Source of the DNA: a virus
Lineage: Duplodnaviria > Caudoviricetes
Strand: one strand, 5' to 3'
Virus record (IMG/VR): IMGVR_UViG_3300038530_002606
Location: 1 to 26,415 of that record
Length of the DNA: 26,415 bases
Part shown: one piece after another, positions 3,001 through 24,402 of the stretch
Numbering within the stretch: the first letter of the stretch is position 1
Layout: every line of letters begins with the position of its first letter
Made by a program: the position numbers and the translations under genes
Notes under the pieces: model-generated
The model's database searches: none
Seen by the model: the letters and a program-made list of their open reading frames with translations, nothing else
Told to the model about the DNA's origin: nothing

Positions 3001-3486
3001 TACAAAGTCTGGCTCTTTGTATTTACGGTTGAATTCATTATCAAACTGTCTATCTAAAAGACCTCTGCCCCTTGTCCACTCAGCAGCGTCGATTTGCCCC
3101 ATGTCCATCATTTTGTTAAGCCGCTTTACCTCAGCGGCAAAACCGTTCATGTGTTGGGCGCGTGCCTGCTCTTTGCGTTTTAAGGCACGGCGGTCCTCAT
3201 TTCTTTTTTGAAGTTGGAGCCGACGTTGCTGGTCTTGTAGTCTCCCCTCCTGTATGAAGTCAACTTCCTCCGGTGTGAATTCCTTAAAGTTGGGTTTGAC
3301 AAGAGATGCTTCGATCTCCTGCATGGCTGGAAGAACGTCTTGTGCAGTGTCCTGCCGTACCGTGACTTCCTCAACCTGACCGGGCCGTTCATTAAAAAAA
3401 CGACGGTTCTGTTGCTGCTGCTCAAACTGTGAAACTTTGTCTTCAAATGAAGGCTGGACCGGCTGCGAAGGATTTACTTGGGACAA
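1..3486 (-). CDS. Giant internal virion/ejection (polyvalent-type) protein with a zincin HExxH motif; truncated by the window edge (>1162 aa)
   Basis: Missing from the ORF track. Manual translation from TTG at 3486 (AGAGGA RBS upstream, 1 nt after the previous stop) gives MSQVNPSQPVQPSFEDKVSQFEQQQQ... with no stop down to position 1. Contains Gly/Ala-rich hydrophobic helices (IASIAGGVLGAAGGGTI) and SAVLSHEFVHNLQ at 475-489. Confidence 0.85.
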   Translation of the reverse strand, partial: MSQVNPSQPVQPSFEDKVSQFEQQQQNRRFFNERPGQVEEVTVRQDTAQDVLPAMQEIEASLVKPNFKEFTPEEVDFIQEGRLQDQQRRLQLQKRNEDRRALKRKEQARAQHMNGFAAEVKRLNKMMDMGQIDAAEWTRGRGLLDRQFDNEFNRKYKEPDFVNEGRVYNPFEFRHVPLYNNPEENVQIGEMRVNTRHYIDNDMMLPERMYQSEMGDKKFEVQNGEVLYFDGRETPTQVFEYLNANGDGTRMAQLAKSLSELELLHTRDMTTSDRIMATLAYSGERFGKAFMDMFPSVASTIEDWLFVPIQERVLEGTDIEAPGLAGIWGGDERVNWLSYLQEQRPVFFDDITTESSVAIGEAIPGFMATIATAFATRNPRAVAGTAEATGLARLGSTVASTTRNMYSGVRGTISQSMPYLVNKLRNEQRYLDMGLTPEQAKQNAAADIAAGLVAVYGSNKLLGGLNSFAMKNPAFKQAFLSSAKYKFPHIVAKGFTREAIQEAFDESFHTALTATLDRADFFGEREDGDFLIGARELLIASIAGGVLGAAGGGTIDSIHVINALDAEFLKDTVPKVGDRATFHDGTPMTLVDEDKTFIRDTPRDTDVEIQLTEIDPKSPDGLTYEQTGRYRNGRVPKVTESNKDKFERAWKNHYYQHMVKEEVEHRPVNERRNILSRAFDSLRTFSEGKGVDPEMFGDPNSEIYEGAGRANGQRKIDLASADAELAYALAGKSLPDIRLGESPARTGERKFKPLKGTSRSDFKKAGLSRFVKGMNQEQRETFVRKAKESVERLNVRTSLQDALAEQALTAAEDRPTATYDRDVAKIQKDAKATAKNFIRSTDSARFWLGMRSKSKQAIMGPSTPFEGMAVPEIVALAADQMVAQQVSDAASADEQVGQPTHLDKDSRFFGTKPSPEAVSILENLLKNYRSMGLVTGEVVAPPSEAAAELVESMRIAGTSVVFVNSMATEAVRDRSTGIIIVNASEFQNDPNSVISAVLSHEFVHNLQFYHPKKYKALVKGLKSINPDMLTDGAKEYMFRLAQSEALRQGVELQRQSFTDAEVVQFIQDNPQVAMEIVPYAVTQLVEAADGDMNRALARAFSGMGRGKLGRFVGKMRRFISAIRGGQNVSQAWSSASAWDQVLLAFESAAFEYRTEGPTLPVD

Positions 3487-3487
3487 C

Positions 3488-5587
3488 TTATGATCCTCTG
3501 CTACCTATTTGCTCTTTGTCAAAAGATTGTTCAAACGCAATCACGCGGTCGTAATACTCACGCCGCGCAGCGTTGAACTCAGCACTGTCAGGCTGTAAGT
3601 CAGGGTTCATCTTTTGAATGATTGGGTTGAGCCTTTGTATGACTTCAATTTCTTTCTTTCGACGAGCCTCCTTATCGCCTTGGAAATACTTCTTGGCTGA
3701 ATCGGGGTGTGCCAAACGTCGCAAGTCACCTAGCGTGGTTCTATCACCCAACTCCTGTGCGACATAGTTGGGTGTGTCCATCGAAGTGACTTTTCCAAAG
3801 TTCGGGTTTGGCGATCCGTCCTGTAAAGTACGGTTCATATCTCGTTCTACTGCTGCATCACGGGCCATAATTTTTTGCTCTTTGGCTTTGTCATCAGCAG
3901 CGGCACGGTAAGTCTCTGACGGGAAGTTGATGGGTGATACAACTCCACCAACATCGGCTATTCCGCGAAGTTGACGCTCTTCTTTCTGAGATTGAGCAAC
4001 TTTGCCAAGGTCACGCCCAGTTTCTTTTTCAGCCTTTTTCCTTGCAGCAAACTCTGCTTCTTGAGTGACCATGGGACGCGCAAGTGTCTCAGCACGACGT
4101 ATCTTCAATTCTGCAATTTTTCTACGATTGTTGACGATTCGTGCGTCACGCTCTCGAAGGTGGGCCTCGAAAGCAGCATCGGCGTATTCTTGCCTGCCTT
4201 GACCATAGATTTGCGTAAGTTGCATCCGATATTCCATCGGATCTGCCTCTTCGATTTGACCAATCTCCGTTTCAAGAAGAGAGATATCTACATCAATTTC
4301 ACGAACAGTTTCTTGGACAACCCGATCAGTGTGTTCCTGCTTATACCGCTCCATGAGGAATTCTTCACGGCTCAACGGAGGCGGAATAATTGGGTTGCCC
4401 TCATCATCAATCTCGAACTGGTCGTTGTCTTGTTTGTATTGATTTACCGCTTTTTGCTGCTCTAAGTAGGCGTTGTAATCAGCAGTTGCTTTTTGGGTGG
4501 TTTCGCTAAATTTCTCACGAAGTTTGGCATTGTCAATACGCTGATCTTCTTGCTTATTACGAATCGCCGTTTTTGCTTCGGCTGCACGACGATTTCTGTA
4601 TGAAATGTCTTCTTGGATTTTCTGCCTAGCCTCAGCGGCTTCCTGCTGTGTTTTTTGCTCTGCGGTTTGTCTAGCAAAACCGCTGGTGGCACTAAAAGTT
4701 GCTGACCCACGGTCAAACAAATCTTGTAATGCACCTTGACGCTCTTCTTCACGCAGGTTTGGATCACGCAGAATCTCAAGATACTCACCCTGCAACTCTT
4801 GATACATGTCACCAAACTGTTGATCTTTGTCCGCAAGATTCTTCAGTTCAGTCATTTGTTTGTCAAATGCTGACTTAGCAACCTTGAACGCTTCTGTTTG
4901 TGGCGAACTTCCATCGCTGTCACCCTGCGCTCTTGCCGCCTTAGCCTCATCCTCTCCAGCAAACACAAACCTGTTCTTCTCAGGGTCAAAGTTTACTGGT
5001 GTAAAGGCGTCAATCTCTGCGTCATATCTATAGTTCTGTCCACCGCTCTTGACGATGGTATCGTCCATGTCCTGCGGTTGGTTTGTTTGGGCTGGGCCTT
5101 CAAAGGTCGGCCCCGTTGAACGACTATTTATAAAACGCTGTAAGTTGGCAGGATCTCGGAATACCCGAGTTTGCCTTCGTGTGTTTGCAGAGCGCATGGC
5201 AGATTGCTGGCGACTACGATTTTTTTTCGCCTCAAGTTGTGTTCGCAAACTGCGGTCGAGTCGTTCTTGTTCTATCTGCTTTACAAAGTTTGGAACAGGA
5301 GGAAGAGGTTTTGGTGCATCTGGAAAGTCAGAAGGTAATGTGAACGGTTCTGGCTCCGGCCCCGGCCTTCTTACTTGCGGCAACGCATCAGGAAACTGCT
5401 TAACATCCAGTGGATTTTTTCCCAAAGGGCGCTGCGGGATAGGCTCACGCCGACCCGTCATCGGGTTGAATCTAGTGTTTGGGTCAGGCTTAGAACCACG
5501 TCTACGCCCCATGTTCTGGAATGCTTTGCCGCCGGAAATGCGACGATCATCAAGCCGTCGATCTCGTCGTTTAGGTCCGTTTGCCAT
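3488..5587 (-). CDS. Putative internal virion/ejection protein (699 aa, coiled-coil rich)
   Basis: GAGG RBS; Arg- and Pro-rich N-terminus followed by long Q/E/K/A/R helical tracts; lies directly before the giant ORF, as podovirus ejection genes do. Confidence 0.65.
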   Translation of the reverse strand: MANGPKRRDRRLDDRRISGGKAFQNMGRRRGSKPDPNTRFNPMTGRREPIPQRPLGKNPLDVKQFPDALPQVRRPGPEPEPFTLPSDFPDAPKPLPPVPNFVKQIEQERLDRSLRTQLEAKKNRSRQQSAMRSANTRRQTRVFRDPANLQRFINSRSTGPTFEGPAQTNQPQDMDDTIVKSGGQNYRYDAEIDAFTPVNFDPEKNRFVFAGEDEAKAARAQGDSDGSSPQTEAFKVAKSAFDKQMTELKNLADKDQQFGDMYQELQGEYLEILRDPNLREEERQGALQDLFDRGSATFSATSGFARQTAEQKTQQEAAEARQKIQEDISYRNRRAAEAKTAIRNKQEDQRIDNAKLREKFSETTQKATADYNAYLEQQKAVNQYKQDNDQFEIDDEGNPIIPPPLSREEFLMERYKQEHTDRVVQETVREIDVDISLLETEIGQIEEADPMEYRMQLTQIYGQGRQEYADAAFEAHLRERDARIVNNRRKIAELKIRRAETLARPMVTQEAEFAARKKAEKETGRDLGKVAQSQKEERQLRGIADVGGVVSPINFPSETYRAAADDKAKEQKIMARDAAVERDMNRTLQDGSPNPNFGKVTSMDTPNYVAQELGDRTTLGDLRRLAHPDSAKKYFQGDKEARRKKEIEVIQRLNPIIQKMNPDLQPDSAEFNAARREYYDRVIAFEQSFDKEQIGSRGS

Positions 5588-5595
5588 GTTGCCTC

Positions 5596-6894
5596 TTAGA
5601 TCAAGTTCTTGTTGTTGTTCTTCGTGGTGCCGCTAGTTTGGCCAGCGATTCGTGGATAGATCACTTCACCAAAGTAGACCGTGGCCTGTTGAGAGTCCGC
5701 TGAGGCCAAGGCAACATTGCTAGTTTCAGCAGAGATGTCCAAAATACCGTTGAACACTGTCGGGCTGTTCACAGTGCAAGTTCCAACCTTGGTGTTTTTC
5801 GTGACATCTACAAGGCCACCAAAAATCGTCACAGGGGTGCTTGTAGAATTACCAACGTTTTGGTCGCTTTGCCACTTGAGTGTGCCGCCAAACACATTCA
5901 CAGTTCTGCACGCCGCGCTGCCTTTGAAGCAAACAGTCCCCCTGTGAATGTTAAGTTGGTCAGCATCTGCAGCGCCACAACTCGACGATGTTTCAAGGTA
6001 CCCACCGTCTACACGCACCTGATGGATGCCAGTAACGCCGGACTCAATAACCATAGTCAACCCTTCAACACCAATCTGGCGGAAAGTGTTTGCACCGCTA
6101 CCAATAAAAGACGACCCATTTTTCAACCGAATGAGACCCTTGGCCTTCGGCCCAGCGACCGTCATAATGTCAACATTTAGGGCTTTGAGATCAATCGTGC
6201 CGTTGTTACAAGTGATAACAATTTCGTCAAAGTTGCCCTCCATGTTTGTTCTACGGCCAGTTCCACCCAGCGCAAGGTAAGGCAAAACAGAATCTGTCTC
6301 ATTAGACACATCTACTCTGAGAGGGATATCTGCCTGTCCGATTGCACCTTGGTAGCCACTGGTGACGCGAAACTGCTTGAGGTTCACTCCAGACTGGTCA
6401 AGCCCGTACAGAACATCATGCGTACCGGTAGAAAAGAATACCTCATCGTTTGAAGCAGGCACAGCAGATGGCGCAGTCCCGTCTGACTCGACCCAGTTGT
6501 TGAGCGTGTTGTAGTCATTTGGACCAGAGTTTGCTGTTGTGGTTGCCGCAGCAAAAGTAGGAGCATTACCATCACCGTCAGTGTTAACGACAGTTTCGGT
6601 CAGGTAAAAAGGCACACCCGGCGCATTTGCTGTGACATCTACCCGTGATGTTTGGTCCGAAAAGGTGACGCGCTTGAACAGGGATTGGGTTGAAGCATTG
6701 CATTGCAAAACAATGTCATCACATACCTGCGCTACCGTCGTTCCTGTGGCTGTCACAGCCTCAGTTTGCGTTATATCGTCCTCACCCTCAAGAATGACAT
6801 TGAAAACGTCGCCAACCTCAATGGTGCCGCCCGGTGTCAACGTGCTTACTTGTGCCTGTGCGGTCGCGCCGCCTTCCCATCTTAAAATTGCCAA
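5596..6894 (-). CDS. Virion appendage/spike-like protein with a predicted C-terminal beta-helix (432 aa)
   Basis: TTG start; T/G/V/N-rich; recurring x-V-x-GG-x-L/V turns (VRVDGGYL, VNVFGGTL, VTIFGGLV, TVFNGIL) typical of parallel beta-helices; sits in the tail region. Confidence 0.6.
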   Translation of the reverse strand: MAILRWEGGATAQAQVSTLTPGGTIEVGDVFNVILEGEDDITQTEAVTATGTTVAQVCDDIVLQCNASTQSLFKRVTFSDQTSRVDVTANAPGVPFYLTETVVNTDGDGNAPTFAAATTTANSGPNDYNTLNNWVESDGTAPSAVPASNDEVFFSTGTHDVLYGLDQSGVNLKQFRVTSGYQGAIGQADIPLRVDVSNETDSVLPYLALGGTGRRTNMEGNFDEIVITCNNGTIDLKALNVDIMTVAGPKAKGLIRLKNGSSFIGSGANTFRQIGVEGLTMVIESGVTGIHQVRVDGGYLETSSSCGAADADQLNIHRGTVCFKGSAACRTVNVFGGTLKWQSDQNVGNSTSTPVTIFGGLVDVTKNTKVGTCTVNSPTVFNGILDISAETSNVALASADSQQATVYFGEVIYPRIAGQTSGTTKNNNKNLI

Positions 6895-6897
6895 AGG

Positions 6898-7269
6898 TCA
6901 CCCCATGTGTTGCATGAATACTCTGATTTGCGCTTTCGGGTCGGCTGAACCATCAGCCTTGCTAACCGTAAACCGAACCGCGTAAATACCTCGTAGATCA
7001 ACATTAACCAGTGCGGGACGACCGCTTGAAAGGTAGTGGTTTGGCCCAAATGGGTACTCTGGATTTGCCCAGTTTTCGCCATCTACCGAAACTTCCATAA
7101 CTACCGTTACGCTGCCGAGGCTGCCTACCCCACCGTCGGGGTCAGGCAAAAGGATAAAACTGCCGAAACTAAACGCTCCTGCATAGAAAGCATCGGAAGA
7201 TTCACCTTCAGCAGTGAGATTGATTAGAGAGTATCGGTCGTTTACAGAGCCTCTGTACTCAAGAGTCAT
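6898..7269 (-). CDS. Small beta-sandwich virion protein (123 aa)
   Basis: Preferred start is ATG 7269 (MTLEYRG), coupled to the upstream stop at 7259. The motif VVMEVSVDGENW...AVRFTVS resembles discoidin/galactose-binding-like jelly rolls. Confidence 0.6.
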   Translation of the reverse strand: MTLEYRGSVNDRYSLINLTAEGESSDAFYAGAFSFGSFILLPDPDGGVGSLGSVTVVMEVSVDGENWANPEYPFGPNHYLSSGRPALVNVDLRGIYAVRFTVSKADGSADPKAQIRVFMQHMG

Positions 7270-7864
7270 TGTTTTGCTCCTGTTCTTTTTTGCGCCGTGC
7301 TTCTTCAGCCTTGCGGCGAGCCTCACAAGGGCTACATTTTTTGGGTTCGCGAACAGGGTCGTCAACGCCCCGGAAGTGACTCATCTGGCTCATGCCCTTG
7401 TCTCCGCCATCAACAGCGTTTGGTGGCGGAACTGCATCTGATTTCCACGCATACAGTTTTTCTTCAGGGTCAAGGCCCACATAGCCTGAGCCAGTCAGTT
7501 TGCGGAACATGTTAAACCACCACCGGTTCAACAATGCCCGGCGACGGCTGCAAGCGGCACACATTGGCACAAGGCCAAGCGTCAAAACCTTGATAATCCA
7601 ATGGACGTAATCCCCCAAACCTGATGTGGGGTACTCAAATACCCGATACCCATAAAGGGTCAAATCTGCCGCATATTGGTCACGATCAAATTTTGGGTTC
7701 TCACTCAAAAAGTTGCCACATTTAAGCATGCAAGTGCCTTTGCTCGGAGCGCCACCAAACAGGCCCGCTTTGCAAACCCCGTGGTATCGAGAGTCAATGT
7801 TTTCCCATTGCGAGCATTGAATGTTTGATGGTGGAACCATGTAGTCAATAGTGTTGTCTTTCAT
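7259..7864 (-). CDS. Cys-motif protein with GLGD...CxxC..R motif (201 aa); possible tail-protein chaperone or metal/redox protein
   Basis: ATGA overlap with the Cys-rich gene. Four N-terminal Cys, then GLGDYVHWII...PMCAACSRRRALLN and a second CSPCEARRK. Confidence 0.7.
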   Translation of the reverse strand: MKDNTIDYMVPPSNIQCSQWENIDSRYHGVCKAGLFGGAPSKGTCMLKCGNFLSENPKFDRDQYAADLTLYGYRVFEYPTSGLGDYVHWIIKVLTLGLVPMCAACSRRRALLNRWWFNMFRKLTGSGYVGLDPEEKLYAWKSDAVPPPNAVDGGDKGMSQMSHFRGVDDPVREPKKCSPCEARRKAEEARRKKEQEQNNDS

Positions 7865-10800
7865 AAAATTACTGCCCTTGGATTAGTCCATTTGCAAGAC
7901 GGCTGGGCTGGTGCCCTTTTCCAAATATCCTTGTCGCATTCTGGGTTGTTGTTCTCATCAAGGTTCAAACCGTGTTTGTAGTAGAAGCCGTCACCGGGAC
8001 TGTTTTGGTCATAATACGGTGGTATCCCTGCAGAGCCACCACCGGTGTTCCAGTAGCCTTCTAGCAAATTATTGTAAGACCCAAAAATGCAATCATTCGG
8101 AGCGTCTTCATCTTTGATTATTACAAATCTTCCTTGCCCCTGCCGACCAATAGTCCCTGAACCCGCATCGTAAGAGGTGCCACCGCCTTTGTATTCCAAC
8201 GCAATTTGGAACCCCTTTTCAAACCCTTGAATTGGTCGTTCTTCAAAATCATCGCATTCTCCGGCGGTGTATACATTGCCTCTGTCAAAGGGTTTTGTTG
8301 AAAGCGGTCCGCAACTGACTGACACTATTTGCAAGCCAATTTCATCTTCAAAGTAACCATCAGCCCATTGACCAAGAGTAGGGTTGACTCCGGGTACTCC
8401 CCCACAAGCGTCCAGACGGCAAGCGTTACCCGACCCTAACCGAACAGTTTTACCCTTACCCTTAAACTCGCACCGCACACATTTACCATCGGGTGTGAGT
8501 ATGTCGTCACACGGTGTATCACCACACGCTGCTGGATCGTGACCAACATCTTCACTTGTTTCCCATGCAATTGGCGTACATGGATCAGAATTAGAAAAAG
8601 CAGTTGGTTTTTTGGTGCAAGGTTGCCATTTGTTTACACCACACTGGGCAATGCTGCCGTCTGGGTATGGCTGATTTTCCCAAGTGTGGTATGGGTCGCC
8701 CCAGTTCCCGTTGCCGTCTTCATCTCTAGGGGTGTTTAGTTCTACACAAAGACCGCCAGTACAGACAGTGCCTGAAGGGTTATAGGATTCCCATGGACAC
8801 CAGCCGGGGTCACCCGGAATCGGTGCAAGTTCTCTTCGGCAATTTACATTAGCGTACTTATTGTCGCCGCGCGGAACAAAAGGTTCAATTGTGTCTGGGC
8901 AATGCCTGCCATAGATACCTTGTGGCGCACCTGCGTACTGTCTGCGAGGAATAATCCAAGAGATGACATCGCCAGAAGGCGAAGTGTAATCGCCGCCTGA
9001 ACAACAAGGCGGAACATTTTGACCTTGAGGACAGTTGGGGGAGGTCACGCGCGGCACTCCCTCAGGCACAAATTCGCAACCTTTTAATGTGACAGTCTGA
9101 TCGCCAACGATGTAATCACAGTCTGCTTGAGGACGTTTGCACCGGTGGTAAATCCCATCTGAATCTGGAATTGCAGACCAGCCACCAAGGTTGCCATTGC
9201 CATCGTCGGCAAGACCATATGGGCAAAGTTGACCGGGAGCAGGGCCAAGATAAAGGCGTTGCTCATCCGTAGTCGGTTCGCCAGTGTTTGGGTTGTAGTC
9301 AATTATTTGCTCACAACAGTTTGTGTTGTAGCAGTCAATTTCATGGCAGCAAAACTGCGAGCCGCAGTATGACCCTTCACCACACTGGTGGCCGCCCTGA
9401 CAATACGCCGCATAGTTTCTTGAAACTGGATTAGTCTTAAAAGTGCATGGACTGGTTCCAGTAGGTGTGACTATGGCGGGAGACACATCGTCTGGACTTC
9501 TAAGACCTGAGTAATCAGTAGGGTCAAAAGTCCCCTCAACAGTCGCACCACCCATGCAGGATATGTTTTGTAATACGTTTTCGCCATCCGGCTGCTTGTC
9601 ACCCTGCGGCCAACGAACGTAATCGTCTGGGCATGTGGCATTAGTTGCACCTTGCAGCGGACAGTGCTTGATGCACGGGATAGTTGTTGGCGGCATTGCT
9701 CCAATCAACTCTTGAGCCAACGGGTTGCAACATTCTGGTTTTACAGTGTCAGGATCCTCTCCACAATCAAGGGTGCCTCGACCTTCGTTTTGGCAATATC
9801 TTTGTGCTTCTAAAAAAGCCGCTTGACCAAACTCAAACTTTTGTCTTGCCCTGATATACGCATTGGCAGTTTCTTCACACGGCCAATCCATTTCTACAGT
9901 AATACTGGTGCCTGCATATTTCGCATCGCAACAGTCGTTGTAGGGTTCATTGTAATTCCAAACACCTTCGTCGCTTTGGTCTAGGTCTTTTCCAAACTTC
10001 TGCCACCATTCACCCCGTTCAGTGCAGTCGTTAATAGCACCGCAATGTTCTATGCAGTTAACTGGCTGTGGAATTGGTTGGCATGAACCAGCCACGCAAT
10101 AGCAGTTTGGTCCACAAATTGTGCCTGTAACACAAGGGTCGCCGGGGCAATCACCGTTGTCGGGTATACCGCCACCGATTCCCCTTGCCATTCTGCCACC
10201 ATTAAGGTCTAAAAACTCACTTTCATGCTCGACCTTTGTGGTTATTGGAATGACAACTCTGCCTTCAGCACGCTCAAGCGCGCCTTCACTTTTAGCGACA
10301 GTAAGCGTCTGCTCCTCGGTAAAAATCTGCGGGTGGTCAGACGTTTCGATTGCCGTTGATGTAAGACTCCGACGCCTATGCTTTTCTCGACGCTTGACTG
10401 CGTCTTTCTCGGCATAAAACTCTTTGTTGAAAGCGTTTCTGTAGAGGTTGCCATAACCCCGGAAAAAGGCATCTTTTATGAGATTGTAGGAGCGTTGAAC
10501 CACACCCACGATCCCAGAGGTCCAACCGTTGCAAGAATCGGTGCAAGCCTCACAGGCTGGGTTCGTTGATCCGCCGCCGTATGTTCCTTGTGGGCGTCCT
10601 CCAGATGCAAGACAATCAAAAGTGCTTGTCACAAAACAGTCGTGAACACTGCCCGGTGTACTGCAACGACAGCAAATAACCTGATCGTCGCCACAAGGAA
10701 AGGCAGTGCCACTTTGGTTGAGGCATGGGCCACATACGGCTCTCAAAGTGTTGAGACCTCTGGTTGGGATCTCACCCCAGCGGCCAGAAGGAATGGTCAA

Positions 10801-11163
10801 TTGCTGGAGCCTGCTGGTTATGTACTGCAACGACATGTGGTCGCGGAACCGGTAGCCAAGTGCATAGGGAGTAGCCCGCAGAGCAAGTCTTGTTATTTGC
10901 CCAAAAATCTTACTAGACCTGACACCAAACTCAGTGCTGCGCCAGTTTTTGTTTGGGCCGTAGTGCCACGCTGCTTTGTTTCCAATACGGTCTCTGAAGG
11001 ATGATGTGGACATCTCAGAAATATTGATGTGTACCGAGGTGACCGGCACGGTCTGCGGCTGCGCATCAGAGGGGCCGCAAGTGCAACGGTCAGTGTTGCA
11101 ATCGTTGCAAGGCAGTTCAGGAACTGAGCAACTGCAACAGCCAACCTTTTGCAACATGCTCAT
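7861..11163 (-). CDS. Giant Cys/Gly/Pro-rich tail or receptor-binding protein (1100 aa)
   Basis: About 73 Cys by manual count (~6.6%), many CC and CxxC; no signal peptide; ATGA-coupled at both ends; follows the tail-tip-like genes. Confidence 0.75.
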   Translation of the reverse strand: MSMLQKVGCCSCSVPELPCNDCNTDRCTCGPSDAQPQTVPVTSVHINISEMSTSSFRDRIGNKAAWHYGPNKNWRSTEFGVRSSKIFGQITRLALRATPYALGYRFRDHMSLQYITSRLQQLTIPSGRWGEIPTRGLNTLRAVCGPCLNQSGTAFPCGDDQVICCRCSTPGSVHDCFVTSTFDCLASGGRPQGTYGGGSTNPACEACTDSCNGWTSGIVGVVQRSYNLIKDAFFRGYGNLYRNAFNKEFYAEKDAVKRREKHRRRSLTSTAIETSDHPQIFTEEQTLTVAKSEGALERAEGRVVIPITTKVEHESEFLDLNGGRMARGIGGGIPDNGDCPGDPCVTGTICGPNCYCVAGSCQPIPQPVNCIEHCGAINDCTERGEWWQKFGKDLDQSDEGVWNYNEPYNDCCDAKYAGTSITVEMDWPCEETANAYIRARQKFEFGQAAFLEAQRYCQNEGRGTLDCGEDPDTVKPECCNPLAQELIGAMPPTTIPCIKHCPLQGATNATCPDDYVRWPQGDKQPDGENVLQNISCMGGATVEGTFDPTDYSGLRSPDDVSPAIVTPTGTSPCTFKTNPVSRNYAAYCQGGHQCGEGSYCGSQFCCHEIDCYNTNCCEQIIDYNPNTGEPTTDEQRLYLGPAPGQLCPYGLADDGNGNLGGWSAIPDSDGIYHRCKRPQADCDYIVGDQTVTLKGCEFVPEGVPRVTSPNCPQGQNVPPCCSGGDYTSPSGDVISWIIPRRQYAGAPQGIYGRHCPDTIEPFVPRGDNKYANVNCRRELAPIPGDPGWCPWESYNPSGTVCTGGLCVELNTPRDEDGNGNWGDPYHTWENQPYPDGSIAQCGVNKWQPCTKKPTAFSNSDPCTPIAWETSEDVGHDPAACGDTPCDDILTPDGKCVRCEFKGKGKTVRLGSGNACRLDACGGVPGVNPTLGQWADGYFEDEIGLQIVSVSCGPLSTKPFDRGNVYTAGECDDFEERPIQGFEKGFQIALEYKGGGTSYDAGSGTIGRQGQGRFVIIKDEDAPNDCIFGSYNNLLEGYWNTGGGSAGIPPYYDQNSPGDGFYYKHGLNLDENNNPECDKDIWKRAPAQPSCKWTNPRAVIL

Positions 11164-11867
11164 CTATTACGCCTCGGCAGATTTCTCCACCTTTTGTTTG
11201 CTTTTTGCATCTGACGAGCCACACCCTCTGGATCGTTGGTTTGCGAGCAAGAAACCTGCAAATCGTTTTTTCCGTACAGCCCAATATGCACCCGCCCAAA
11301 CTCGCCCCGAGTAAACACTACGGGGACGCCACCCACACCACTGTCCGGGTTCCGAACTGCAAGTGGCAAAATATTTACGTTGCCGGGTATGGCGGTGTTA
11401 TCTGGGTTGTTTGGCGCAGCCACACCGTGCAAATTTCTAACAACATCTTGGCTGCTTTGGGCTGCTGCTTTGTAATTTGTATCGCAAATATTACGGGCCG
11501 AAATCTGTCCGCCGTCAAATTGGTCTAAAACAAACTTGGGAACACCAATACGTTTCATCATTTTTTCAAATGGCGCGCCCTCTGATTCTCCCGGTGCAAA
11601 CAAAGTGTCGTAAAAATTGAACGCGGGGACCAACACATAAGTGCCTGAATCTTTATCGTCAGGCGCATCGGGGTCATTCAGGCCGCCAGCCTGAATGTAG
11701 CAAAACAAAACGAATTGGTTTGTTGCATCTCCGCCTCCAACGCGGTCAAATAACTGACCAAAGGATCTCTGCGATTCACCGATGCGAGATTCAAGAAGTT
11801 CTACGGTTCGACTAAGTTCGTCAAACTTGCGTTGGAACTCTTCACTAAAAGGGTTTGTTGCTGACAT
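11160..11867 (-). CDS. Putative tail-tip/baseplate protein (235 aa)
   Basis: N-terminal coiled coil (FQRKFDELSRTVELLESRI) followed by a beta-rich region; coupled to both neighbours; assignment rests on position. Confidence 0.5.
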   Translation of the reverse strand: MSATNPFSEEFQRKFDELSRTVELLESRIGESQRSFGQLFDRVGGGDATNQFVLFCYIQAGGLNDPDAPDDKDSGTYVLVPAFNFYDTLFAPGESEGAPFEKMMKRIGVPKFVLDQFDGGQISARNICDTNYKAAAQSSQDVVRNLHGVAAPNNPDNTAIPGNVNILPLAVRNPDSGVGGVPVVFTRGEFGRVHIGLYGKNDLQVSCSQTNDPEGVARQMQKANKRWRNLPRRNR

Positions 11868-12754
11868 TATGAGTAAAGGGGTAAGAAGGGGGCAGATTGG
11901 TACTGCGGTTCGTAAATGATTCTACCCCGTAAACCGTCCTTGTCGTCTTCAAAGGTCTCGATTGCCTGATTTACCCAAGCGGTGCTGCAAATGGAGAACT
12001 GGTAACGTGTTGCCCACGCGACCCCACCATCCCTTTCAAGCAGCGGCCTTGGGCTGGTCTGAAAACCATCCAACCGGACACGGTTGGGGTTCCAAAATCT
12101 TTGTTCTGCGTCAGGGCCAAACGGGACATAAAAGGCTTGGGAGTTGGTTTTTCCAACAAGTTTTGTCCACCCTTGTGTGTAAGGACCATTCTGGTCAATT
12201 ACCAAAGGGGTGTATTGAATGATTGAGCGGGTAAACGGCTGCCGAGTAAGAGCGTCGCCGCCAATATGGGCATCAAGATTAATGTTCGTTGGCGATTCGT
12301 CGGGAAGTTGATTGATAAGTCGGCTGTCGGGAATGCCAAAATTGTTGGTCACCCCGCCAGCGGTGTAAATCATAATGGTGTCGGCAGACACACTACTGTC
12401 AAAAGCCTCTTCTCCGACAAACCCAGCGGTCATTTCTATAAGACCCGGCGTGACAACACGGGCAGTAATATTTTGCAGCAGCACCTGTCCGTAGTACCCG
12501 GTCAAGTGAGTCTTTGAACGAATGTAGTTGCCTACTACTGTGTCTTGGCCAGAGGGATCAGAGGTGTCGGCTCCTACGCCCGCCAAGTACGACCGAAAAG
12601 CAGTCTTGGCGTCAAGCAAAAGACTTGCCTCAGACCTGCCTTTTGTTGCGTCGTACCGATAGAACGACTTCGTAGAAAACTGATTGCCAGTCCCATAGTT
12701 GGAGGTCCAACGGGCAGAAAGGCCACTAAACGGCCTTGTAATTAACCTAGCCAT
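11867..12754 (-). CDS. Putative distal tail/hub protein (295 aa)
   Basis: Aromatic beta-rich sequence. LVGKTNSQAF...VRLDG...WATRYQFSI...W resembles, from recollection, proteins that follow the tape measure in planctomycete-type prophages. Confidence 0.5.
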   Translation of the reverse strand: MARLITRPFSGLSARWTSNYGTGNQFSTKSFYRYDATKGRSEASLLLDAKTAFRSYLAGVGADTSDPSGQDTVVGNYIRSKTHLTGYYGQVLLQNITARVVTPGLIEMTAGFVGEEAFDSSVSADTIMIYTAGGVTNNFGIPDSRLINQLPDESPTNINLDAHIGGDALTRQPFTRSIIQYTPLVIDQNGPYTQGWTKLVGKTNSQAFYVPFGPDAEQRFWNPNRVRLDGFQTSPRPLLERDGGVAWATRYQFSICSTAWVNQAIETFEDDKDGLRGRIIYEPQYQSAPFLPLYS

Positions 12755-13094
12755 TTCTTAACGCCTGCACGATCTTGTCTGGTAGTTCTTGCAGTGCTTT
12801 GAGAATGGGATCATTCTCACCGCCACCAAATTCTGACACTAACCTTTGCGCGGTTTGAAATGCAGCCGGGTTTGAGTCAGCGTCAAACAAACCTTCAGGC
12901 AGGCTTGATGGTAGTTGGAAGTCAGGAACCTTTTGCTCCAAAACTTGCTCCGACGTTTGCTCTGGAGTTTGCTCTGGAGTTTGCTGCGGTGTTTGCGTGC
13001 CACCAAAGACAGATGCAAAAGCATCCTCAAAGGTGACATCTTTCATTTGCTCAAACTGGTCATCCAGCGAGAGCGTCTTCAACGTATCGGCCAC
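12747..13094 (-). CDS. Small acidic protein at the tape-measure position (115 aa)
   Basis: GTG start with a GGAGTGG RBS-like sequence; QTPE repeats; amphipathic C-terminal helix ILKALQELPDKIVQALR. Confidence 0.6.
   Translation of the reverse strand: MADTLKTLSLDDQFEQMKDVTFEDAFASVFGGTQTPQQTPEQTPEQTSEQVLEQKVPDFQLPSSLPEGLFDADSNPAAFQTAQRLVSEFGGGENDPILKALQELPDKIVQALRNG
12936..12995 (-). repeat. Five degenerate 12-bp tandem repeats encoding QTPQ-QTPE-QTPE-QTSE-QVLE
   Basis: Plus strand reads ctccaaaacttg ctccgacgtttg ctctggagtttg ctctggagtttg ctgcggtgtttg. Confidence 0.9.
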
Positions 13095-13494
13095 TGATTA
13101 CCACTCCTACGATTGCGGATTGCCTCATAGACGCTTGAACTTGAATGGACTCTACCACAACTGCTTTGGTGCCTTGGTTATTTGCGCCCCCAAAATCGAG
13201 TTGCAGAGACAGTGTTGTTGACCCACCTGAAATCTGAGAATTCAAGTTTTGAAGACCAAGTGCTGTAGCAGTTACCATGCAGCCTGTGAGACGAAACTGC
13301 GAGTAAGCAATGTCTCCGTGTTCATACACAGGACCACCAGTGACAGAGTCACCCGTGCCAGTGACTTCCTGCAAGGGAATTCTGTGCTGACCACTATATT
13401 CAAACACCTTCATTGCAAACTTTGCGGACAACCCATTTGCTGTGAAGATACCCGTGCCAAGCGCTGTTGTTGGCCTTACTACTTGTGTAGGCAT
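13060..13494 (-). CDS. Tail tube-like protein (144 aa)
   Basis: Size and pattern match the non-contractile tail-tube fold: EVTGTGDS loop, then YEHG...FRLTG, and terminal strands VVESIQVQA...VGVVISG. Confidence 0.55.
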   Translation of the reverse strand: MPTQVVRPTTALGTGIFTANGLSAKFAMKVFEYSGQHRIPLQEVTGTGDSVTGGPVYEHGDIAYSQFRLTGCMVTATALGLQNLNSQISGGSTTLSLQLDFGGANNQGTKAVVVESIQVQASMRQSAIVGVVISGRYVEDALAG

Positions 13495-17507: not shown

Positions 17508-18551
17508 TTATACCGTTTCCAGACGGAAGAGACGACGGCGATCGGTACACATGTAGTTCAAAGTGCAGTCAACGAAGACTTGGAACGTGGTGTGTTGACC
17601 GGGAACAGTGTTCGGTCCTTCTTCCTTCATCCATTCGCCGGACAAGAAGACAGGCTTGAGAACGCCCCAGTTGATGCCGTAAATCGGGTTAGTGGTTTCT
17701 GCATCCAGTTTAGGAACGTAGATGACAGGGTTTTGACGGAAAGTAAGAAGACCGTCCTTGGAAGCAATGTCGTTTCCGAGGTTGTCGTTCTGGGCCTCAA
17801 GCACCTCTTCCAATCGACCAATCACGGCGTAGTTGGTGTAGTAGCCGTAGTTGTTGCCGGTGTTGTAGGAAGCGTGTGGTACAGGAGACTTGAAGTTGGT
17901 GAAGACAGCAGCCTTACGCCACTTGCGGATCAAGTCAGTCTTGTTGATGCTCGTGTAGGCAGCGACGTAGTTTCGCCATCCAGAGAACTTCTCAAGATCA
18001 GAGTTGATGCCACCAGCACCATCAGAGAAACCAGATGGGTTCTTGCCAAGGAAGCCCTCGTCGCTGCTGGTTGATGGTGGCACGATCCAGTGTGGGATAC
18101 CAAATGGTTTGAGACTGTCGCTTGAAGAAGTTGGAGTAGACCAAAGGTTGGTTTCCATCAGTTCAGCGAGTGACAACATCGCGTCGGCTCGACGGGTTTT
18201 CACCAGTTCCACGATGCGTGCCGGATTGGCGTTCATCTGAATTTCACGACGCTCGAAAGCGTAGTTGGTGGTGCAGTGTCGCCACGGAATGTTTGCCGTG
18301 GTCATAACGTCTGCGATGTTCACATTGTCAGATTCGTACAGGCCGACGTTCTTAGCAGCGTCGGATTGCGCGAACATGACGTTCCACTGAATGCCATGAC
18401 CGGATTGGTACTGGACCTTGTACTTCTGAAGAATGTTGGGGAGTGCGACATAATCCGTGAGGGTTGACGCAATCTCCGTAAACTTCAGCCGCCCGAGATC
18501 CCGAAGGGTCACAGTAATCAGATCAGCAATTTGTGCGGCTTGCAGTGCCAT
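17508..18551 (-). CDS. Major capsid protein (HK97 fold, podovirus-type; 347 aa)
   Basis: GAGGT RBS; follows the scaffold; E-loop-like GHGIQWNV...GLYESD, spine helix IVELVKTRRADAMLSLAELMETNLW, PFGIPHW, and C-terminal LNYMCTDRRR. Confidence 0.85.
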   Translation of the reverse strand: MALQAAQIADLITVTLRDLGRLKFTEIASTLTDYVALPNILQKYKVQYQSGHGIQWNVMFAQSDAAKNVGLYESDNVNIADVMTTANIPWRHCTTNYAFERREIQMNANPARIVELVKTRRADAMLSLAELMETNLWSTPTSSSDSLKPFGIPHWIVPPSTSSDEGFLGKNPSGFSDGAGGINSDLEKFSGWRNYVAAYTSINKTDLIRKWRKAAVFTNFKSPVPHASYNTGNNYGYYTNYAVIGRLEEVLEAQNDNLGNDIASKDGLLTFRQNPVIYVPKLDAETTNPIYGINWGVLKPVFLSGEWMKEEGPNTVPGQHTTFQVFVDCTLNYMCTDRRRLFRLETV

Positions 18552-18573
18552 GCTATTACCTCATACTTAGGGG

Positions 18574-19497
18574 TTAGAAATCTTGCGGATCGTCAATCCC
18601 GTTCAGCAATCCAGACTGCTCCATATACGACCTCACCGATTGCTTCGCAGCCGCCTCTGGGGACATGGCTCTTCCGCGTCGTTGAGTCGGGGATGCTGTG
18701 AACGCATCGCGGCGACTGTTTATAGCAGCCCGCATTTGTGCTGCTTGAATCTCGTCCCGATCTTGGGTGAACGCACTGGCAAGAGCCTTCTGCATGAGAA
18801 CGTCTTCAGAAGGTATTTCTCGCCCTTGGGCCTCATATCCGGCTGCAAGGGTGTTCATTTCCTCGATCAAGAGGACTCGATTCTCCAAAAACTGACTGTC
18901 ATCAGCCAGTTCTTCGGTAGGGCCAGAGCCGAACAGCCCTGAATAACCAGACCCTACCTCTTCAATCATCTGATCGAACTGAGCCTCAGTTTGCTCAATT
19001 TGTGCAGATTCTTGCATATTCTCAAAATCACCAAACACACGCTCAAAATTGGCTAACTTTTCCTCTAGTTTGCTAACCAAGCCTTCGACAGCGGCTTTTA
19101 CTTCGTCTGGTGTGCCTTCTGGAAGTTCGTAGTCCAACGAGAAGTCTGGCTCTTCTTCTTCCTCGTCAGCCTCGACCTCTTCCATTTGACGTTGTGCGAT
19201 TTCAATGTAGTTCTGGATGTTCTCAATAGAACCCAAACGGTCGATATCGTCCGGCTCTAGGCCAACATCCAAGGCCGCTTCAAGCAGATCATCTACTTCT
19301 ACGTCCTCTTCGTAGTATTCTTCTTCACTACCATCCGAGTTTTTGTCCTCGATGTAGTCCTCAAGGGCTTCCTGCTGCAAGTCATCATCTGGATCGTCAA
19401 AATCCAGTTGGTCTTCCAACTGCTCCTCTGGAGTCATTGCCTGTTCTTCGACAACCTCTTCGCCTTCACTGGCTTCTATATTTTGTTCTTCAGTCAC
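18574..19497 (-). CDS. Capsid scaffolding protein (about 307 aa)
   Basis: Extremely D/E-rich and helical with a basic C-terminal patch (PTQRRGR); lies between portal and capsid genes. GTG 19497 overlapping the upstream stop is preferred over the track start. Confidence 0.75.
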   Translation of the reverse strand: MTEEQNIEASEGEEVVEEQAMTPEEQLEDQLDFDDPDDDLQQEALEDYIEDKNSDGSEEEYYEEDVEVDDLLEAALDVGLEPDDIDRLGSIENIQNYIEIAQRQMEEVEADEEEEEPDFSLDYELPEGTPDEVKAAVEGLVSKLEEKLANFERVFGDFENMQESAQIEQTEAQFDQMIEEVGSGYSGLFGSGPTEELADDSQFLENRVLLIEEMNTLAAGYEAQGREIPSEDVLMQKALASAFTQDRDEIQAAQMRAAINSRRDAFTASPTQRRGRAMSPEAAAKQSVRSYMEQSGLLNGIDDPQDF

Positions 19498-19849
19498 CGT
19501 AGCCACCGTTTCTATCGTGCAGGTTGAAAGCCTTGAGGTGCGCTGCACGGTGCGACCGGCTCGTAAAGATTGCTCGCCCATCCTTGGTGTAGTCAGTATT
19601 GACCCCATGTTTGGCAGCATGTTGTTTCATTTCATTGATTTGTGATGGGTGACAGCCTGCCCCCTCCGACATGATTGGCTGTCGCCATACGTCGTTGACA
19701 TCACTGTGACCACGCATCTCAACATCTACCCGACGCTTGACGGTTTCGCCGTCAAGGACCGGGTTCTTGTCAAAATCCTCCATCTCGGAGATGGTCATAA
19801 TTTTTTCGATGATTTCGCCGTTTGGCTTTTCGTAGCAATACGTTGGCAT
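19490..19849 (-). CDS. FmdB-like protein lacking the zinc-ribbon cysteines (119 aa)
   Basis: MPTYxY start and position after the portal are typical of phage FmdB-like genes; C-terminus GRAIFTSRSHRAAHLKAFNL. Confidence 0.6.
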   Translation of the reverse strand: MPTYCYEKPNGEIIEKIMTISEMEDFDKNPVLDGETVKRRVDVEMRGHSDVNDVWRQPIMSEGAGCHPSQINEMKQHAAKHGVNTDYTKDGRAIFTSRSHRAAHLKAFNLHDRNGGYGD

Positions 19850-21621
19850 TATTCCGCTGGCCTCATAATCGAAGCGGCCTCGCTGTCCTGAACACCGCGT
19901 CCAGTAAGCAGCAGGCGGCTCATCATTTCATCCTGACCCTGCCTCGTCGCACCCGGCTTGTTGACTCGTACCGATTCAGTTCTCTTGTGTACAGACCTGT
20001 TTGCAGCCTGATCTTTTTCAGTTCCAACAGGCACGCCCTGTTTGGAATCAACAACCATTTGTCCAAGATCAGGCAACTGAGTGTATTCGCCAAGCATACT
20101 AACCAGTTTACGAACATCCAGCGCAAGACCCTGCTGCTGCATCATCGGCATAAGTGGGTTTATAAATTGACCCATAACTTGCGTAAGAGCCTGCAACTTC
20201 ATGCCGGGGGTTGACTGCTGGAGGCTGTGAGGCTGAACATCAATGCTGAAGTTTACAAACTCACCCTCAGCCTTGGAGCCTTCGTATACAAACGGCACTT
20301 TGATTGAACCATTTTTGCCAACAGCCTTTTCAAGTTCCAGTTTGACAAAGCGATCTTCAAACAGATGTTGCGCAATCGCAGTCACAGTTTCTTTAACGAA
20401 TGAAATGACTTGGCTCTGCATGTCAGCAACACGGTTAGACGCTGACTGCGAAATAAGTTTGTCTTGACCTACCGTGTCAGACTGCGTACCAAGGCCACCC
20501 AGAGCGTCAAGATTGCCGCCCAAGTAGGTGAAAAGTGACTTGGTTTGCAACATGAAACCAAGGGTCTGTTGGTCGATGCCACCAAACTTGTATGTCTTGA
20601 TCGCGTCAGGATCGTCAAGGCGAATCATTTCGCCATCAGCAGCGTTTTGCAAGTTTTTGGCATCACCTTCCGCAGACCCACGGAAACCAACAATGTCTTT
20701 TTGTCGTTCTGCCTGCCGCCCTAGTTTGCGGAACAAGGTGTTAGACAGTTCGTGCATGTCAATGAGTGTGGCAACAGGAGCCAAAGGCATGGTGTTGCCC
20801 GGCACATCCGAGAACTGCAAGAAGTGATATGGCCCTTCAATCGGGCCGTTGTACTCAACCTGACGAATTAAATGGTGCGGTGCGCCTGTGTCATCGGCTG
20901 CAAATGTCAGGATCTTCCCTTCTTGCGGCAACCACATTTCCCAGAGTTCTGCGTACTCATACGCTTCGTCTTTGTCGTAAGACGTTTCATTGCCGAGGCT
21001 AAACGACTTCGGATCTCCCGTTTCATTGTTTCTGCTCCTACGAACCGCTTGGATTTTATCGGTGTCTTCATACAGGTCGGACTCTTTGACTGCATGAAGC
21101 GGCAGTCGGAACCTGTTGCCCATGAAAGCACATTCCGTCATTTCTTGGGCATTCATGTCGTGAACCCAGTCATCAAGACCAACACACTCTGCATAGGGCT
21201 GTCCTGAACGAGTCAGGAAACCACGGATAGGTTGGCTTGGCTCACTGACACCAACTTTCACAATACCCATAGAGAACAAAGCATCGACTGTCGCTTGACG
21301 CAAAGTTTGCTCAAAGTTCATTTCACCAAGCAGGTGGTTTGTTGCAAGTTCAAACTCTTTGGAAAAAATACGCAGTTCACGCTGGCGTGTTCCAATCGTG
21401 ATTGCAGGTCGGCGGGATGCCAGTTGTCTTGAATAAATGTTGATTGCCAACTCAATAAAGTTGACCGGCACACGATCAGCAGCACCCTGATCGGAGTAGT
21501 TGCGACCGACATACTCACGGAGAGCAGCCAAACGGCGGACTCTGTAAGGCTCAAGTCGCCTTCTGCTGTGGCTGACCGCAGCCTTGAGTCGGGAAATGTC
21601 TACGTTGCCGACTTTTACCAT
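19849..21621 (-). CDS. Portal protein (P22/podovirus-like; 590 aa)
   Basis: Follows terL; PVNFIELAI...RP, DALFSMGIVKVG, ELWEMW, GPYHFL motifs and a Q-rich C-terminal region. Confidence 0.85.
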   Translation of the reverse strand: MVKVGNVDISRLKAAVSHSRRRLEPYRVRRLAALREYVGRNYSDQGAADRVPVNFIELAINIYSRQLASRRPAITIGTRQRELRIFSKEFELATNHLLGEMNFEQTLRQATVDALFSMGIVKVGVSEPSQPIRGFLTRSGQPYAECVGLDDWVHDMNAQEMTECAFMGNRFRLPLHAVKESDLYEDTDKIQAVRRSRNNETGDPKSFSLGNETSYDKDEAYEYAELWEMWLPQEGKILTFAADDTGAPHHLIRQVEYNGPIEGPYHFLQFSDVPGNTMPLAPVATLIDMHELSNTLFRKLGRQAERQKDIVGFRGSAEGDAKNLQNAADGEMIRLDDPDAIKTYKFGGIDQQTLGFMLQTKSLFTYLGGNLDALGGLGTQSDTVGQDKLISQSASNRVADMQSQVISFVKETVTAIAQHLFEDRFVKLELEKAVGKNGSIKVPFVYEGSKAEGEFVNFSIDVQPHSLQQSTPGMKLQALTQVMGQFINPLMPMMQQQGLALDVRKLVSMLGEYTQLPDLGQMVVDSKQGVPVGTEKDQAANRSVHKRTESVRVNKPGATRQGQDEMMSRLLLTGRGVQDSEAASIMRPAE

Positions 21622-23348
21622 TTTGCTTTTTCAACCTTCTTCTGTTTACGGCTTTTTTGCCGATACGCCAAAGTACCGTACACGGAACCTTTGTCCTCTT
21701 TTATCATCGGATCGGGAGTCACGTTGGTTAATTTAGCCGCTAGAGAGTCTGCAATCACCCTATCGCCATGATTGTCTTTTGCACCAGACGGGTCAGTGCC
21801 GTGTCGAGAACGACTATGCACAACTCCCCCAGTTTGACTAAACACATATTCACGGCACTCCTTGAGGGCTGCTCTGCTTCTGTTTGTAATGTCTCCGTTG
21901 GACAACATTCGTCGGTAGTTGCCGAGTAGCGCAATTTTTTCCTCTTTGGTGCTGTACCAGCCCGGAATGCTGCTGGTCTTGGAAGACACAGATTTGTCAT
22001 TCCTACGGAAGTAGATGTTCCCGTATCCCAACTCCATAATTACGTCACCAAAAATGCGACCGGGACCGTTGGCCTCCCAAATCAAATGCGCTCCAACTTC
22101 AGACTTCCCTTTGAACATATGACACAAAGCAACCACAGCCCTTGCGAACTGGTCTGGCCTCATATCAGGTGTGACAAATTCAGCAACCTTCTCGCCATCC
22201 TTACGTCTGACCACAGAGGCAACGCTGTTGCTACTACCAGTTCCAGTGGCAATGTCTGCACCGATTACATAGTCACAGTCTTGGGGTGGCATGTTGAAGT
22301 CATTAAGTTCGACCCAAAGCGAGACTGGGGCGTTTGGATAAGATGAAACCCCTGACAACCGGCCTGCTGGGTCGTGTTCCAAAGCGACTTGACGCAGCGG
22401 CGGCTTTATTTTTTCTTCCGCCCGCGTGACCACTTCCTCTGGGAAAAAGAGATATTCCGACCCCGCGAAGTCGAGGTCGAGTTCTTGTGCGACTTCGACT
22501 GGGTGCGTACGCCTCTTGAGTTCGTTCTCATACCAAGGCGATGTAGGCTTACCATCGCTGCCATGTCGTAGGCCAACATTTTTTCGTGGATCTTGAGTCC
22601 AGTGAAATTTGAGTGTTTTTGTCCTGCCTGAGTGAACAATGTCATAGAAGACATTTCCGGAACCCTTCGGGGTGCTAATAAACCATCTGGTGTTCGACGC
22701 ATCTGCGGTTGCTGCAAGCACTTGACCACCATTTTCCACGCTCGCAAACTCATCAAGCGCGATGCAGGTCTTACGATCACCCCGAGCCACATCACCCGTG
22801 GTTGACTCTCCAGTGATTGCTGATCCATTGTCATCGTTGGTTAGCCGTAGTTTGGTGCGAGTGAGGTTGGGAACCAACCAGCCCGGCAAGTGGTCAAGGA
22901 AAAAGTCAATCTTGGCGAAAAGACTGGCACTGTTGCCCGGTGAATCTACCAAACCTTCTTTACGACTGACAAGTAGCAAAGACTTCAAAGGTTTGAAATG
23001 CCAGTACCAAGCAAAAACTGTGGTGGTCAGCCAAGACGCACCCATGTCCCGAGACTTGACCATTGCAAGATCATGCCCATTGTCAATGGAATCACACATC
23101 TCGTCGATGGCTTCTTCTTGAAACGGGTACAAAACAAACGGCCTTGCTGCTGGGTCAAGCCGTGGGTCGAGGGTGTAGCCAAAGGTATTGATGTAAAAGA
23201 AGATGTCCCGATTGCACATCTTCCATAGTTCAGCCTGCGTCTTCGGACTGCCCTTGGCTTTCGTCAAGATGTCCCGACGAAATGCGAGGTTCTGAATCAT
23301 GGTCTTCGGGACAAGATGGGAGTATGGGTGTTCCGGCAAGGTAGTCAA
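21615..23348 (-). CDS. terL: Terminase large subunit (577 aa)
   Basis: Adenine-binding LYPFQ, Walker A VKSRDMGASW, Walker B IALDEFA, coupling motif ISTPKG, RNase H-like IGADIATG and HGDRVIAD; TTG start with AGAGG RBS. Confidence 0.95.
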   Translation of the reverse strand: MTTLPEHPYSHLVPKTMIQNLAFRRDILTKAKGSPKTQAELWKMCNRDIFFYINTFGYTLDPRLDPAARPFVLYPFQEEAIDEMCDSIDNGHDLAMVKSRDMGASWLTTTVFAWYWHFKPLKSLLLVSRKEGLVDSPGNSASLFAKIDFFLDHLPGWLVPNLTRTKLRLTNDDNGSAITGESTTGDVARGDRKTCIALDEFASVENGGQVLAATADASNTRWFISTPKGSGNVFYDIVHSGRTKTLKFHWTQDPRKNVGLRHGSDGKPTSPWYENELKRRTHPVEVAQELDLDFAGSEYLFFPEEVVTRAEEKIKPPLRQVALEHDPAGRLSGVSSYPNAPVSLWVELNDFNMPPQDCDYVIGADIATGTGSSNSVASVVRRKDGEKVAEFVTPDMRPDQFARAVVALCHMFKGKSEVGAHLIWEANGPGRIFGDVIMELGYGNIYFRRNDKSVSSKTSSIPGWYSTKEEKIALLGNYRRMLSNGDITNRSRAALKECREYVFSQTGGVVHSRSRHGTDPSGAKDNHGDRVIADSLAAKLTNVTPDPMIKEDKGSVYGTLAYRQKSRKQKKVEKAKW

Positions 23349-24184: not shown

Positions 24185-24402
24185 GCACGCTTACCTTTTG
24201 TACGGTTGGTCTTGCGTGAGACTACCCGAAGGTTGTCCTTGCCGTTGCCACCACCCTTGCTTAGTGGTGTCTTGTGATCCACCTCACGGGGATCTCCAAC
24301 CTTAAGTTTCTTCTTACGACGGGCCATAACACGCATCGACCGGGCCTTTCGGGCAGCCGGGGTGCTGTGAAACTTGCCGTACTCGCGTTTGTAGTCTCTC
24401 AA
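24181..24402 (-). CDS. Small HNH (HNN) endonuclease-like protein (73 aa)
   Basis: EVDHKTPLSKGGGNGKDNLRVVSRKTNRTKG motif; RDYKREY N-terminus; adjacent to the terminase genes. Confidence 0.85.
   Translation of the reverse strand: MRDYKREYGKFHSTPAARKARSMRVMARRKKKLKVGDPREVDHKTPLSKGGGNGKDNLRVVSRKTNRTKGKRA

Follow-up and report, generated by a model that had tools for sequence, protein, structure and literature searches.

Why would a tailed phage keep, in its tail region, a protein of 1100 residues with 73 cysteines? The question is raised by a stretch of viral DNA of 26,415 nucleotides, referred to here as the window (IMG/VR record IMGVR_UViG_3300038530_002606, positions 1 to 26,415; Duplodnaviria, Caudoviricetes), in which the gene for this Cys-rich protein, P0001, occupies 7861..11163 on the minus strand. 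An initial annotation, made from the letters alone, had seen in it a receptor-binding fibre that was either disulfide-knotted or polymetallic. We find that the gene is the middle member of a translationally coupled trio, formed by an "adaptor" gene, the Cys-rich gene and a small GLGD-CxxC gene, and that the two flanking genes, absent from that annotation, are more telling than the composition of P0001 alone. On balance, P0001 is probably a conserved Cys-dense receptor-binding tail tip, part of this three-gene cassette and held together mainly by disulfides.

The composition described in the initial annotation was reproduced on counting: the open reading frame (ORF) encodes 1100 residues, 73 of them Cys (6.6%), is rich in Gly (11.5%), Pro (8.1%), Asp (6.9%) and Asn (5.5%), with Thr also abundant, and has its two long Cys-free spacers near the N-terminus, at residues 30-143 and 212-338. 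The Cys motif said to start the protein exists but begins at residue 8, after seven other residues, and not at residue 1. The N-terminal cluster is of the CC(x)C type (C9, C10, C12, C19, C22, C27 and C29), the C-terminal end is a hydrophobic strand, and the Cys cluster at residues 144-211 (window 10531-10732) is one that we take to resemble the Cys-rich repeats of planctomycete surface proteins. The lack of an export signal was borne out by a hydropathy scan, a check different from a signal-peptide predictor: the N-terminus is not hydrophobic, and the highest 19-residue Kyte-Doolittle mean was 0.83 (0.68 near the N-terminus), with no signal-like or membrane segment. Among the other window proteins, Cys amounts to 0-1.6% in 13 of the 14 measured, and to 4.0% in the downstream neighbour, P0011. 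P0001 had no Pfam, PHROG, NCBIfam or significant PDB sequence match (a PDB hit at E 0.003 over 40 positions was rejected as Cys-driven) and no usable match in ESM Atlas, and direct scans of viral contigs with the protein or its alignment found nothing.

Nine homologs, at 36-92% identity, were recovered among 4413 candidates. When a profile of 11 P0001 sequences was run against 1.84 billion representatives, 9 proteins were returned at E 0.001; two full or near-full new proteins and the fragments inspected belong to the same family, so that the P0001 family proper is small. Between P0001 and its homolog in locus L160, pN was 0.21 and pS 0.78, and all 41 aligned Cys were kept, 14 of them via the other Cys codon, which together with the nine homologs shows that the ORF is a real gene; in the comparison with L165, 65 of 71 Cys were kept. 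The initial annotation had named unconserved cysteines as the finding that would speak against it, and we found the reverse: in four homologs at 41-43% identity conservation was highest for Cys (0.85), followed by Trp (0.58), with His at 0.47, and across the set of 11 sequences 43 of the 73 Cys never vary and 56 are kept in 10 or more. Since Cys is the best-conserved residue in the homologs, the cysteines of P0001 are, as judged from the alignment, under selection. In one contig (L161:653-1909) the 290 N-terminal residues of a P0001 homolog give way to Cys-free sequence and genes that are both unrelated, a junction that marks a recombinant or chimeric contig.

Four-base overlaps join P0001 to both neighbours, at its start to the stop codon of a 235-aa gene and at its stop to the start codon of a 201-aa gene. 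Of the 30 loci related to the window by their capsid, 12 were examined in detail: L005, L011, L015/L016 and L021 carry, at the place of P0001, a Cys-rich gene of 280-820 aa with 6.4-8.0% Cys and a CCC or CCxC cluster at its start, followed by a small gene with the motif GLGD...CxxC...R...LN; among these Cys-rich genes, that of L005 alone aligns to P0001. Three of the 12 loci end too early to show the slot, and in L025, L026, L028 and L029 no Cys-rich gene was found on that strand within the flank. Scanning for the GLGD motif yielded 56 viral loci; an upstream ORF is present in 51, and in 40 of these 51 it has an N-terminal Cys cluster and 2.8-8.2% Cys, a share that is biased upward, the seed being taken from three module-bearing loci and redundant contigs being counted. 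After clustering, with four clusters without an N-terminal Cys cluster removed beforehand, the slot proteins form 29 clusters below 60% identity in 19 BLAST groups, of 202-1100 aa and a mean of 6.2% Cys, and most of them end in a hydrophobic strand. Family scans of the slot relatives of P0001 gave no match. For the 279-aa slot protein from L021, modelling on an alignment of 29 sequences gave an almost all-beta compact monomer (pLDDT 89, pTM 0.87), for which Foldseek gave no match at E 0.001 in PDB or BFVD.

Tail-tip and receptor-binding genes lie after the tape measure and hub genes. On a Pirellulales chromosome (L140), the sole chromosomal full cassette seen, a tail tube gene (Pfam TTP_12 at E 8e-4, below the cut-off) is followed in turn by the tape measure (E 4e-24 to a PHROG), genes of 293 aa (hub-like) and 121 aa, the adaptor, the Cys-rich gene (678 aa, 53 Cys), a 146-aa Cys-rich gene and GLGD; in L114 the order is tape measure, hub-like, adaptor, Cys-rich and GLGD. 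The window and its capsid relatives share the order hub-like, adaptor, slot, GLGD, the window itself having no more than a possible tape measure and the names "hub" and "adaptor" being given from gene position. The hub/distal-tail-like gene of the window (295 aa; 11867..12754, minus strand), recognised by its position after the tape measure in siphophage-like loci, has a weak profile match to siphophage-locus genes (probability 9.6%, E 0.003) and no PDB match. The synteny with tape measure and hub-like genes in L140 and L114 supports a tail-tip place for P0001, which is likely the tail-tip or receptor-binding protein and, from its gene context, a likely virion protein. As for the receptor-binding fibre of the initial annotation, the tail-tip place is supported but nothing points to a fibre: the short slot protein folds as a compact beta monomer, and P0001 itself has none of the marks looked for in a trimeric fibre, neither fibre or beta-helix repeats nor a fibre-family match in Pfam, PHROG or PDB. 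In L140 the GLGD domain is fused to an AEP primase-like domain and is separated from the slot gene by the inserted 146-aa Cys-rich gene (8962-10120); the same genome holds two further GLGD copies (L171, L173) with no Cys-rich gene nearby.

The adaptor (235 aa; 11160..11867, minus strand) has an N-terminal helical, coiled-coil-like segment and, by its position, is a candidate for an oligomeric spike carrying the tip. A Cys at the end of its conserved region is invariant in three alignments of hand-chosen rows (9/9, 8/8 and 8/8). In an unselected count, an abutting upstream ORF was present in 23 of the 29 slot clusters; in 17 of them a Cys lies within the final seven residues, in three it precedes a tail of 23-28 aa (Cys207 of the window included) and three are without. 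The end of the adaptor and the start of the slot protein are thus both marked by Cys and, because the fibres of Pam3 and Milano are attached by disulfides, a covalent tether between the N-terminal Cys cluster of P0001 and the adaptor Cys would be a natural reading, one that we put forward tentatively. An odd number of Cys was also considered as support for the tether and rejected, being seen in 3 of 10 members of the P0001 family and 7 of 17 of the L021 family. The adaptor has no PDB sequence match, and its ESM Atlas matches (0.79-0.80, below 0.9) are leads only.

On the other side of P0001 lies the partner, P0011 (201 aa, 8 Cys; 7259..7864, minus strand), whose GLGD...CxxC...R...LN domain makes it a candidate thiol chaperone or oxidoreductase. 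The CxxC of this domain is CAAC, a second CxxC lies near the C-terminus, and four Cys are N-terminal. The GLGD domains of five related partners match phrog_32048, of unknown function (E 2e-12 to 4e-4), while P0011 itself had no match to it at E 0.05. The dithiol is invariant in the partner alignments, and 62 distinct segments, selected by that same motif, comprise 56 with CxxC (32 of them CGGC) and 6 with CxC. P0011 and its stand-alone relatives had no Pfam or NCBIfam match, the thioredoxin, Erv/ALR, DsbB and VKOR families included; redoxin domains were seen only as fusion partners of the GLGD domain. In a GTDB genome scan for the motif (19 loci, 11 inspected), the domain was fused to AhpC/TSA-redoxin domains in L145, L154 and L156, in the last directly before a protein with 16.5% Cys. 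In L142 and L147 the GLGD gene stands between a PatA-like S8 protease gene and a PatG-domain gene, beside small Cys-rich ORFs, and in L153 it adjoins a PatG gene. The GLGD domain thus accompanies Cys-rich clients or thiol-redox domains in three settings (the slot, redoxin fusions and PatA/PatG clusters), and a redox role for P0011 is suggested, if somewhat short of likely. In the phylum to which the Pirellulales record belongs, 5 of 401 genomes have the family, and none of 14 controls does; in the four inspectable loci outside that record it lies in protease/PatG-like clusters, not in prophages.

Several features of these GLGD loci deserve mention in their own right. The redoxin fusions (L154:4940-6202, L156:1824-3537 and L145:9863-10555) place the GLGD domain between or before redoxin domains with a weak MauD/ResA likeness, and in L154 the fusion follows a gene for an FAD-dependent oxidoreductase. 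A bacterial cluster of S8 protease, GLGD-CGGC and PatG_D-PatG_C genes is recurrent (L142:4940-8446, L147:8536-13523, L167, L168, L172 and L174), and these PatA/PatG clusters also contain a number of small Cys-rich ORFs that have a leader in common at the N-terminus; this looks like an undescribed Cys-rich peptide system, RiPP-like, in several phyla. In four phage loci (L096:5875-7008, L121:5902-6900, L122:5487-6485 and L128:5905-6879) the GLGD domain is fused to a phosphoribosyltransferase (PRTase; in L121 Pfam E 5e-5) and a second, HAD-like-looking domain.

Taking these elements together, we propose that the adaptor would form an oligomeric, probably trimeric, spike on the hub, and that one P0001 chain would cap this spike, its N-terminal CC(x)C cluster pairing, by analogy with Pam3, with the invariant C-terminal Cys of the adaptor. 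The rest of P0001 would be a beta core with many small disulfide-closed insertions, and such Cys-closed insertions would allow lengths between 200 and 1100 aa in the slot and its diversification for host range. The co-translated GLGD-CxxC protein would prevent thiol mispairing or catalyse exchange, with final oxidation at or after lysis. In its most complete form, in which the cassette supplies a monomeric disulfide-knotted tip of unmatched fold, a three-to-one Cys tether and its own oxidative-folding catalyst, the 40-residue GLGD-CxxC domain that bacteria also employ next to thioredoxin domains and Cys-rich peptides, we regard the proposal as rather unlikely.

Between the two chemistries of the initial annotation, few CxxC and little His favour disulfides and disfavour a polymetallic protein. 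In P0001, 12 of the 73 Cys are in CxxC, which leaves 61 outside, CxxCH does not occur and His is at 1.5%; in the 29 slot proteins, 156 of 892 Cys (17%) are in CxxC and His is at 1.4%. His conservation in P0001 is unremarkable, not above that of Trp, Pro or Gly, and the seven CC doublets, together with many isolated Cys set far apart, form a pattern usual in disulfide-rich proteins. P0001 shows what is expected of such a protein (conserved Cys, few CxxC, few His), and not what marks a metalloprotein (most Cys in CxxC or Cys-His knuckles, and a family match), no metal-binding Pfam match having been found; disulfides are, by these sequence features, likely dominant in it, and a mixed case of disulfides plus one metal site is possible. 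A polymetallic (Zn or Fe/Fe-S) tip, with one metal site formed jointly by the three N-terminal Cys and the Cys of the adaptor and with the partner as metal chaperone, appears unlikely to us, although it would fit assembly in the cytoplasm without an oxidase, metals do occur in phage tips (Zn in PAAR tips, Fe-S in lambda gpL) and a CxxC partner would suit a metal carrier. It also draws on observations that count against disulfides or are neutral: CxxC is enriched 1.26-fold over a local shuffle, close to CC (1.45-fold) and CxC (1.23-fold), Cys changes are even in number on 2 of 9 tree branches, and co-presence patterns are no commoner for Cys pairs than for other residues, the joint presence of pairs 707/727 and 856/866 being anecdotal. 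Branch parity and pair covariation were dropped as evidence for disulfides, as neither exceeded its controls.

The tip and its disulfides could also be as we propose while the bonds arise spontaneously after lysis or through host enzymes, the GLGD protein being a structural element or an assembly chaperone without redox function, an account that we find possible, if not probable. One report, in the parts drawn on here, ascribes phage disulfides to host isomerases or air oxidation (PMC13576161); the GLGD domain is of about 40 aa, shows no known oxidase fold or cofactor site in family searches and has PRTase and primase-like domains among its fusion partners, and its gene in L142 belongs to a YcaO cluster, whose Cys may be turned into thiazoles and not disulfides. 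Yet some 36 bonds per chain would be hard to pair by air oxidation unless the protein were pre-folded, and the dithiol is found in 62 of 62 motif-picked partner segments, with redoxin fusions in three bacterial loci. P0001 might, finally, not belong to the virion at all, but be a late non-structural or ejected protein or a captured Cys-rich host-type surface protein: no known tail protein matches it by sequence, nor the short slot family by fold, and in L090 and L118, which have Cys-rich and GLGD genes, the former is not beside a recognisable hub-adaptor pair. Its fixed place after tape measure or hub-like genes in sipho-like and podo-like genomes, its coupling to its neighbours and its strong variation from lineage to lineage, which a receptor-binding slot would be expected to show, make this improbable. 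The proposed tip has other observations against it. The full-length AlphaFold model of P0001 (pLDDT 31) is unusable, L029 has a related capsid but no such module within the flank, 11 of the 51 viral GLGD loci are without a Cys-rich gene, and the number of Cys is odd in 20 of 29 slot clusters (p 0.03), inconsistently within families. That one slot means one fold is unproven, because P0001 has no detectable homology to the short slot family (L021) that folded well, and no significant alignment was obtained between the podo-like and the sipho-like adaptors.

The remainder of the window is that of a tailed phage, as its head module shows: major capsid protein, scaffold-like gene, portal and large terminase, identified by family matches, lie at 17508..23348 on the minus strand, and the capsid protein matches NF033394 (capsid_maj_Podo) at E 1e-42. 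Upstream of the cassette, a conserved 144-aa tube-like gene and a 115-aa acidic gene (12747..13494, minus strand), assigned by position, may be a very short tube and tape measure; the tube-like gene has no PDB match. Large internal-virion-like genes follow the module (1-5587), and with its podovirus-type capsid the window possibly represents a podo-like phage with a miniature siphophage-type tail. Another conserved part of the tail may be encoded by a 432-aa gene (5596-6894), whose N-terminus resembles by eye those of cassette-adjoining genes in L096 and L132. The terminase is surrounded by ordinary genes, for endonuclease VII, HNH endonuclease and DUF6321 (23230-24402, 25488-25783), and the product of 25744-26166 has a C-terminus that we take to resemble a PEP-CTERM sorting signal, with no NCBIfam match. 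The virus record behind the window is 60% complete; most of the stretch is contained in two runs labelled marine metagenome, one of them possibly its source, and no RNA run is listed as containing it. The capsid profile found nothing in 401 genomes belonging to the same phylum as the Pirellulales record, and GenBank phages gave no match to the window capsid or to P0001.

For the formation of disulfides in phage virions the cassette offers a small candidate, coupled to a likely client in many uncultured phages. Should the partner prove catalytic, its function would be of a kind new to phages; in its most complete form the proposal would amount to a disulfide pathway that the phage itself encodes and that draws on a new protein family. 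The slot itself points to an unannotated receptor-binding class that would diversify via Cys-closed loops, with a possible redox trigger for tip release, and its short members (200-280 aa, one modelled at pLDDT 89) are amenable to expression and structure solution.

Among known tips, the monomeric spike tips of the PAAR and gp5.4 type resemble the arrangement proposed here, a monomer that would cap a trimeric spike at the end of the tail, and so does the T5 pb5-type tip receptor-binding protein (PMC12750041, in the parts drawn on). P0001 differs from both in being far larger and Cys-dense, and has no sequence or Foldseek match to them. The premise of the initial annotation, that virion proteins assembled in a reducing cytoplasm are normally Cys-poor, is dated, since the Pam3, Milano and Jabs virions carry disulfide networks according to the portions of the literature consulted. 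In Pam3, three Cys of one wedge loop bond Cys28 of three fibre chains; the likeness of its baseplate gp22/gp23 and fibre gp24 to our cassette lies in disulfides within the adsorption device, which in Pam3 are DTT-sensitive (PMC9942802). Pam3 differs in having myophage wedge and side fibres with few Cys and no 70-Cys chain, the sections consulted mention no dedicated CxxC gene, and its proteins have no sequence match to P0001. In Milano, the consulted sections describe receptor-binding proteins attached via N-terminal Cys to baseplate Cys, and structural proteins with 2.1% Cys against an average of 0.9% in T4 (PMC10811340); there Cys is spread over the whole tail, whereas here it is concentrated in P0001, at three times the Milano structural average. 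A 2026 report names, in the parts drawn on, further disulfide-linked virions and states that thiol-oxidoreductase machinery is undescribed in phages; the thiol oxidoreductases of NCLDV that it covers (poxvirus, mimivirus) share with our proposal a viral CxxC gene proposed to serve disulfide-rich virion proteins made in the cytoplasm (PMC13576161). In the open-access literature, searched by title or start of abstract and with subscription papers and supplements outside its scope, no paper describing the cassette was found. Disulfide-stabilised phage adsorption devices are thus already known, and what is new here is an extreme Cys density in one variable slot, combined with a conserved upstream Cys and a conserved downstream dithiol gene.

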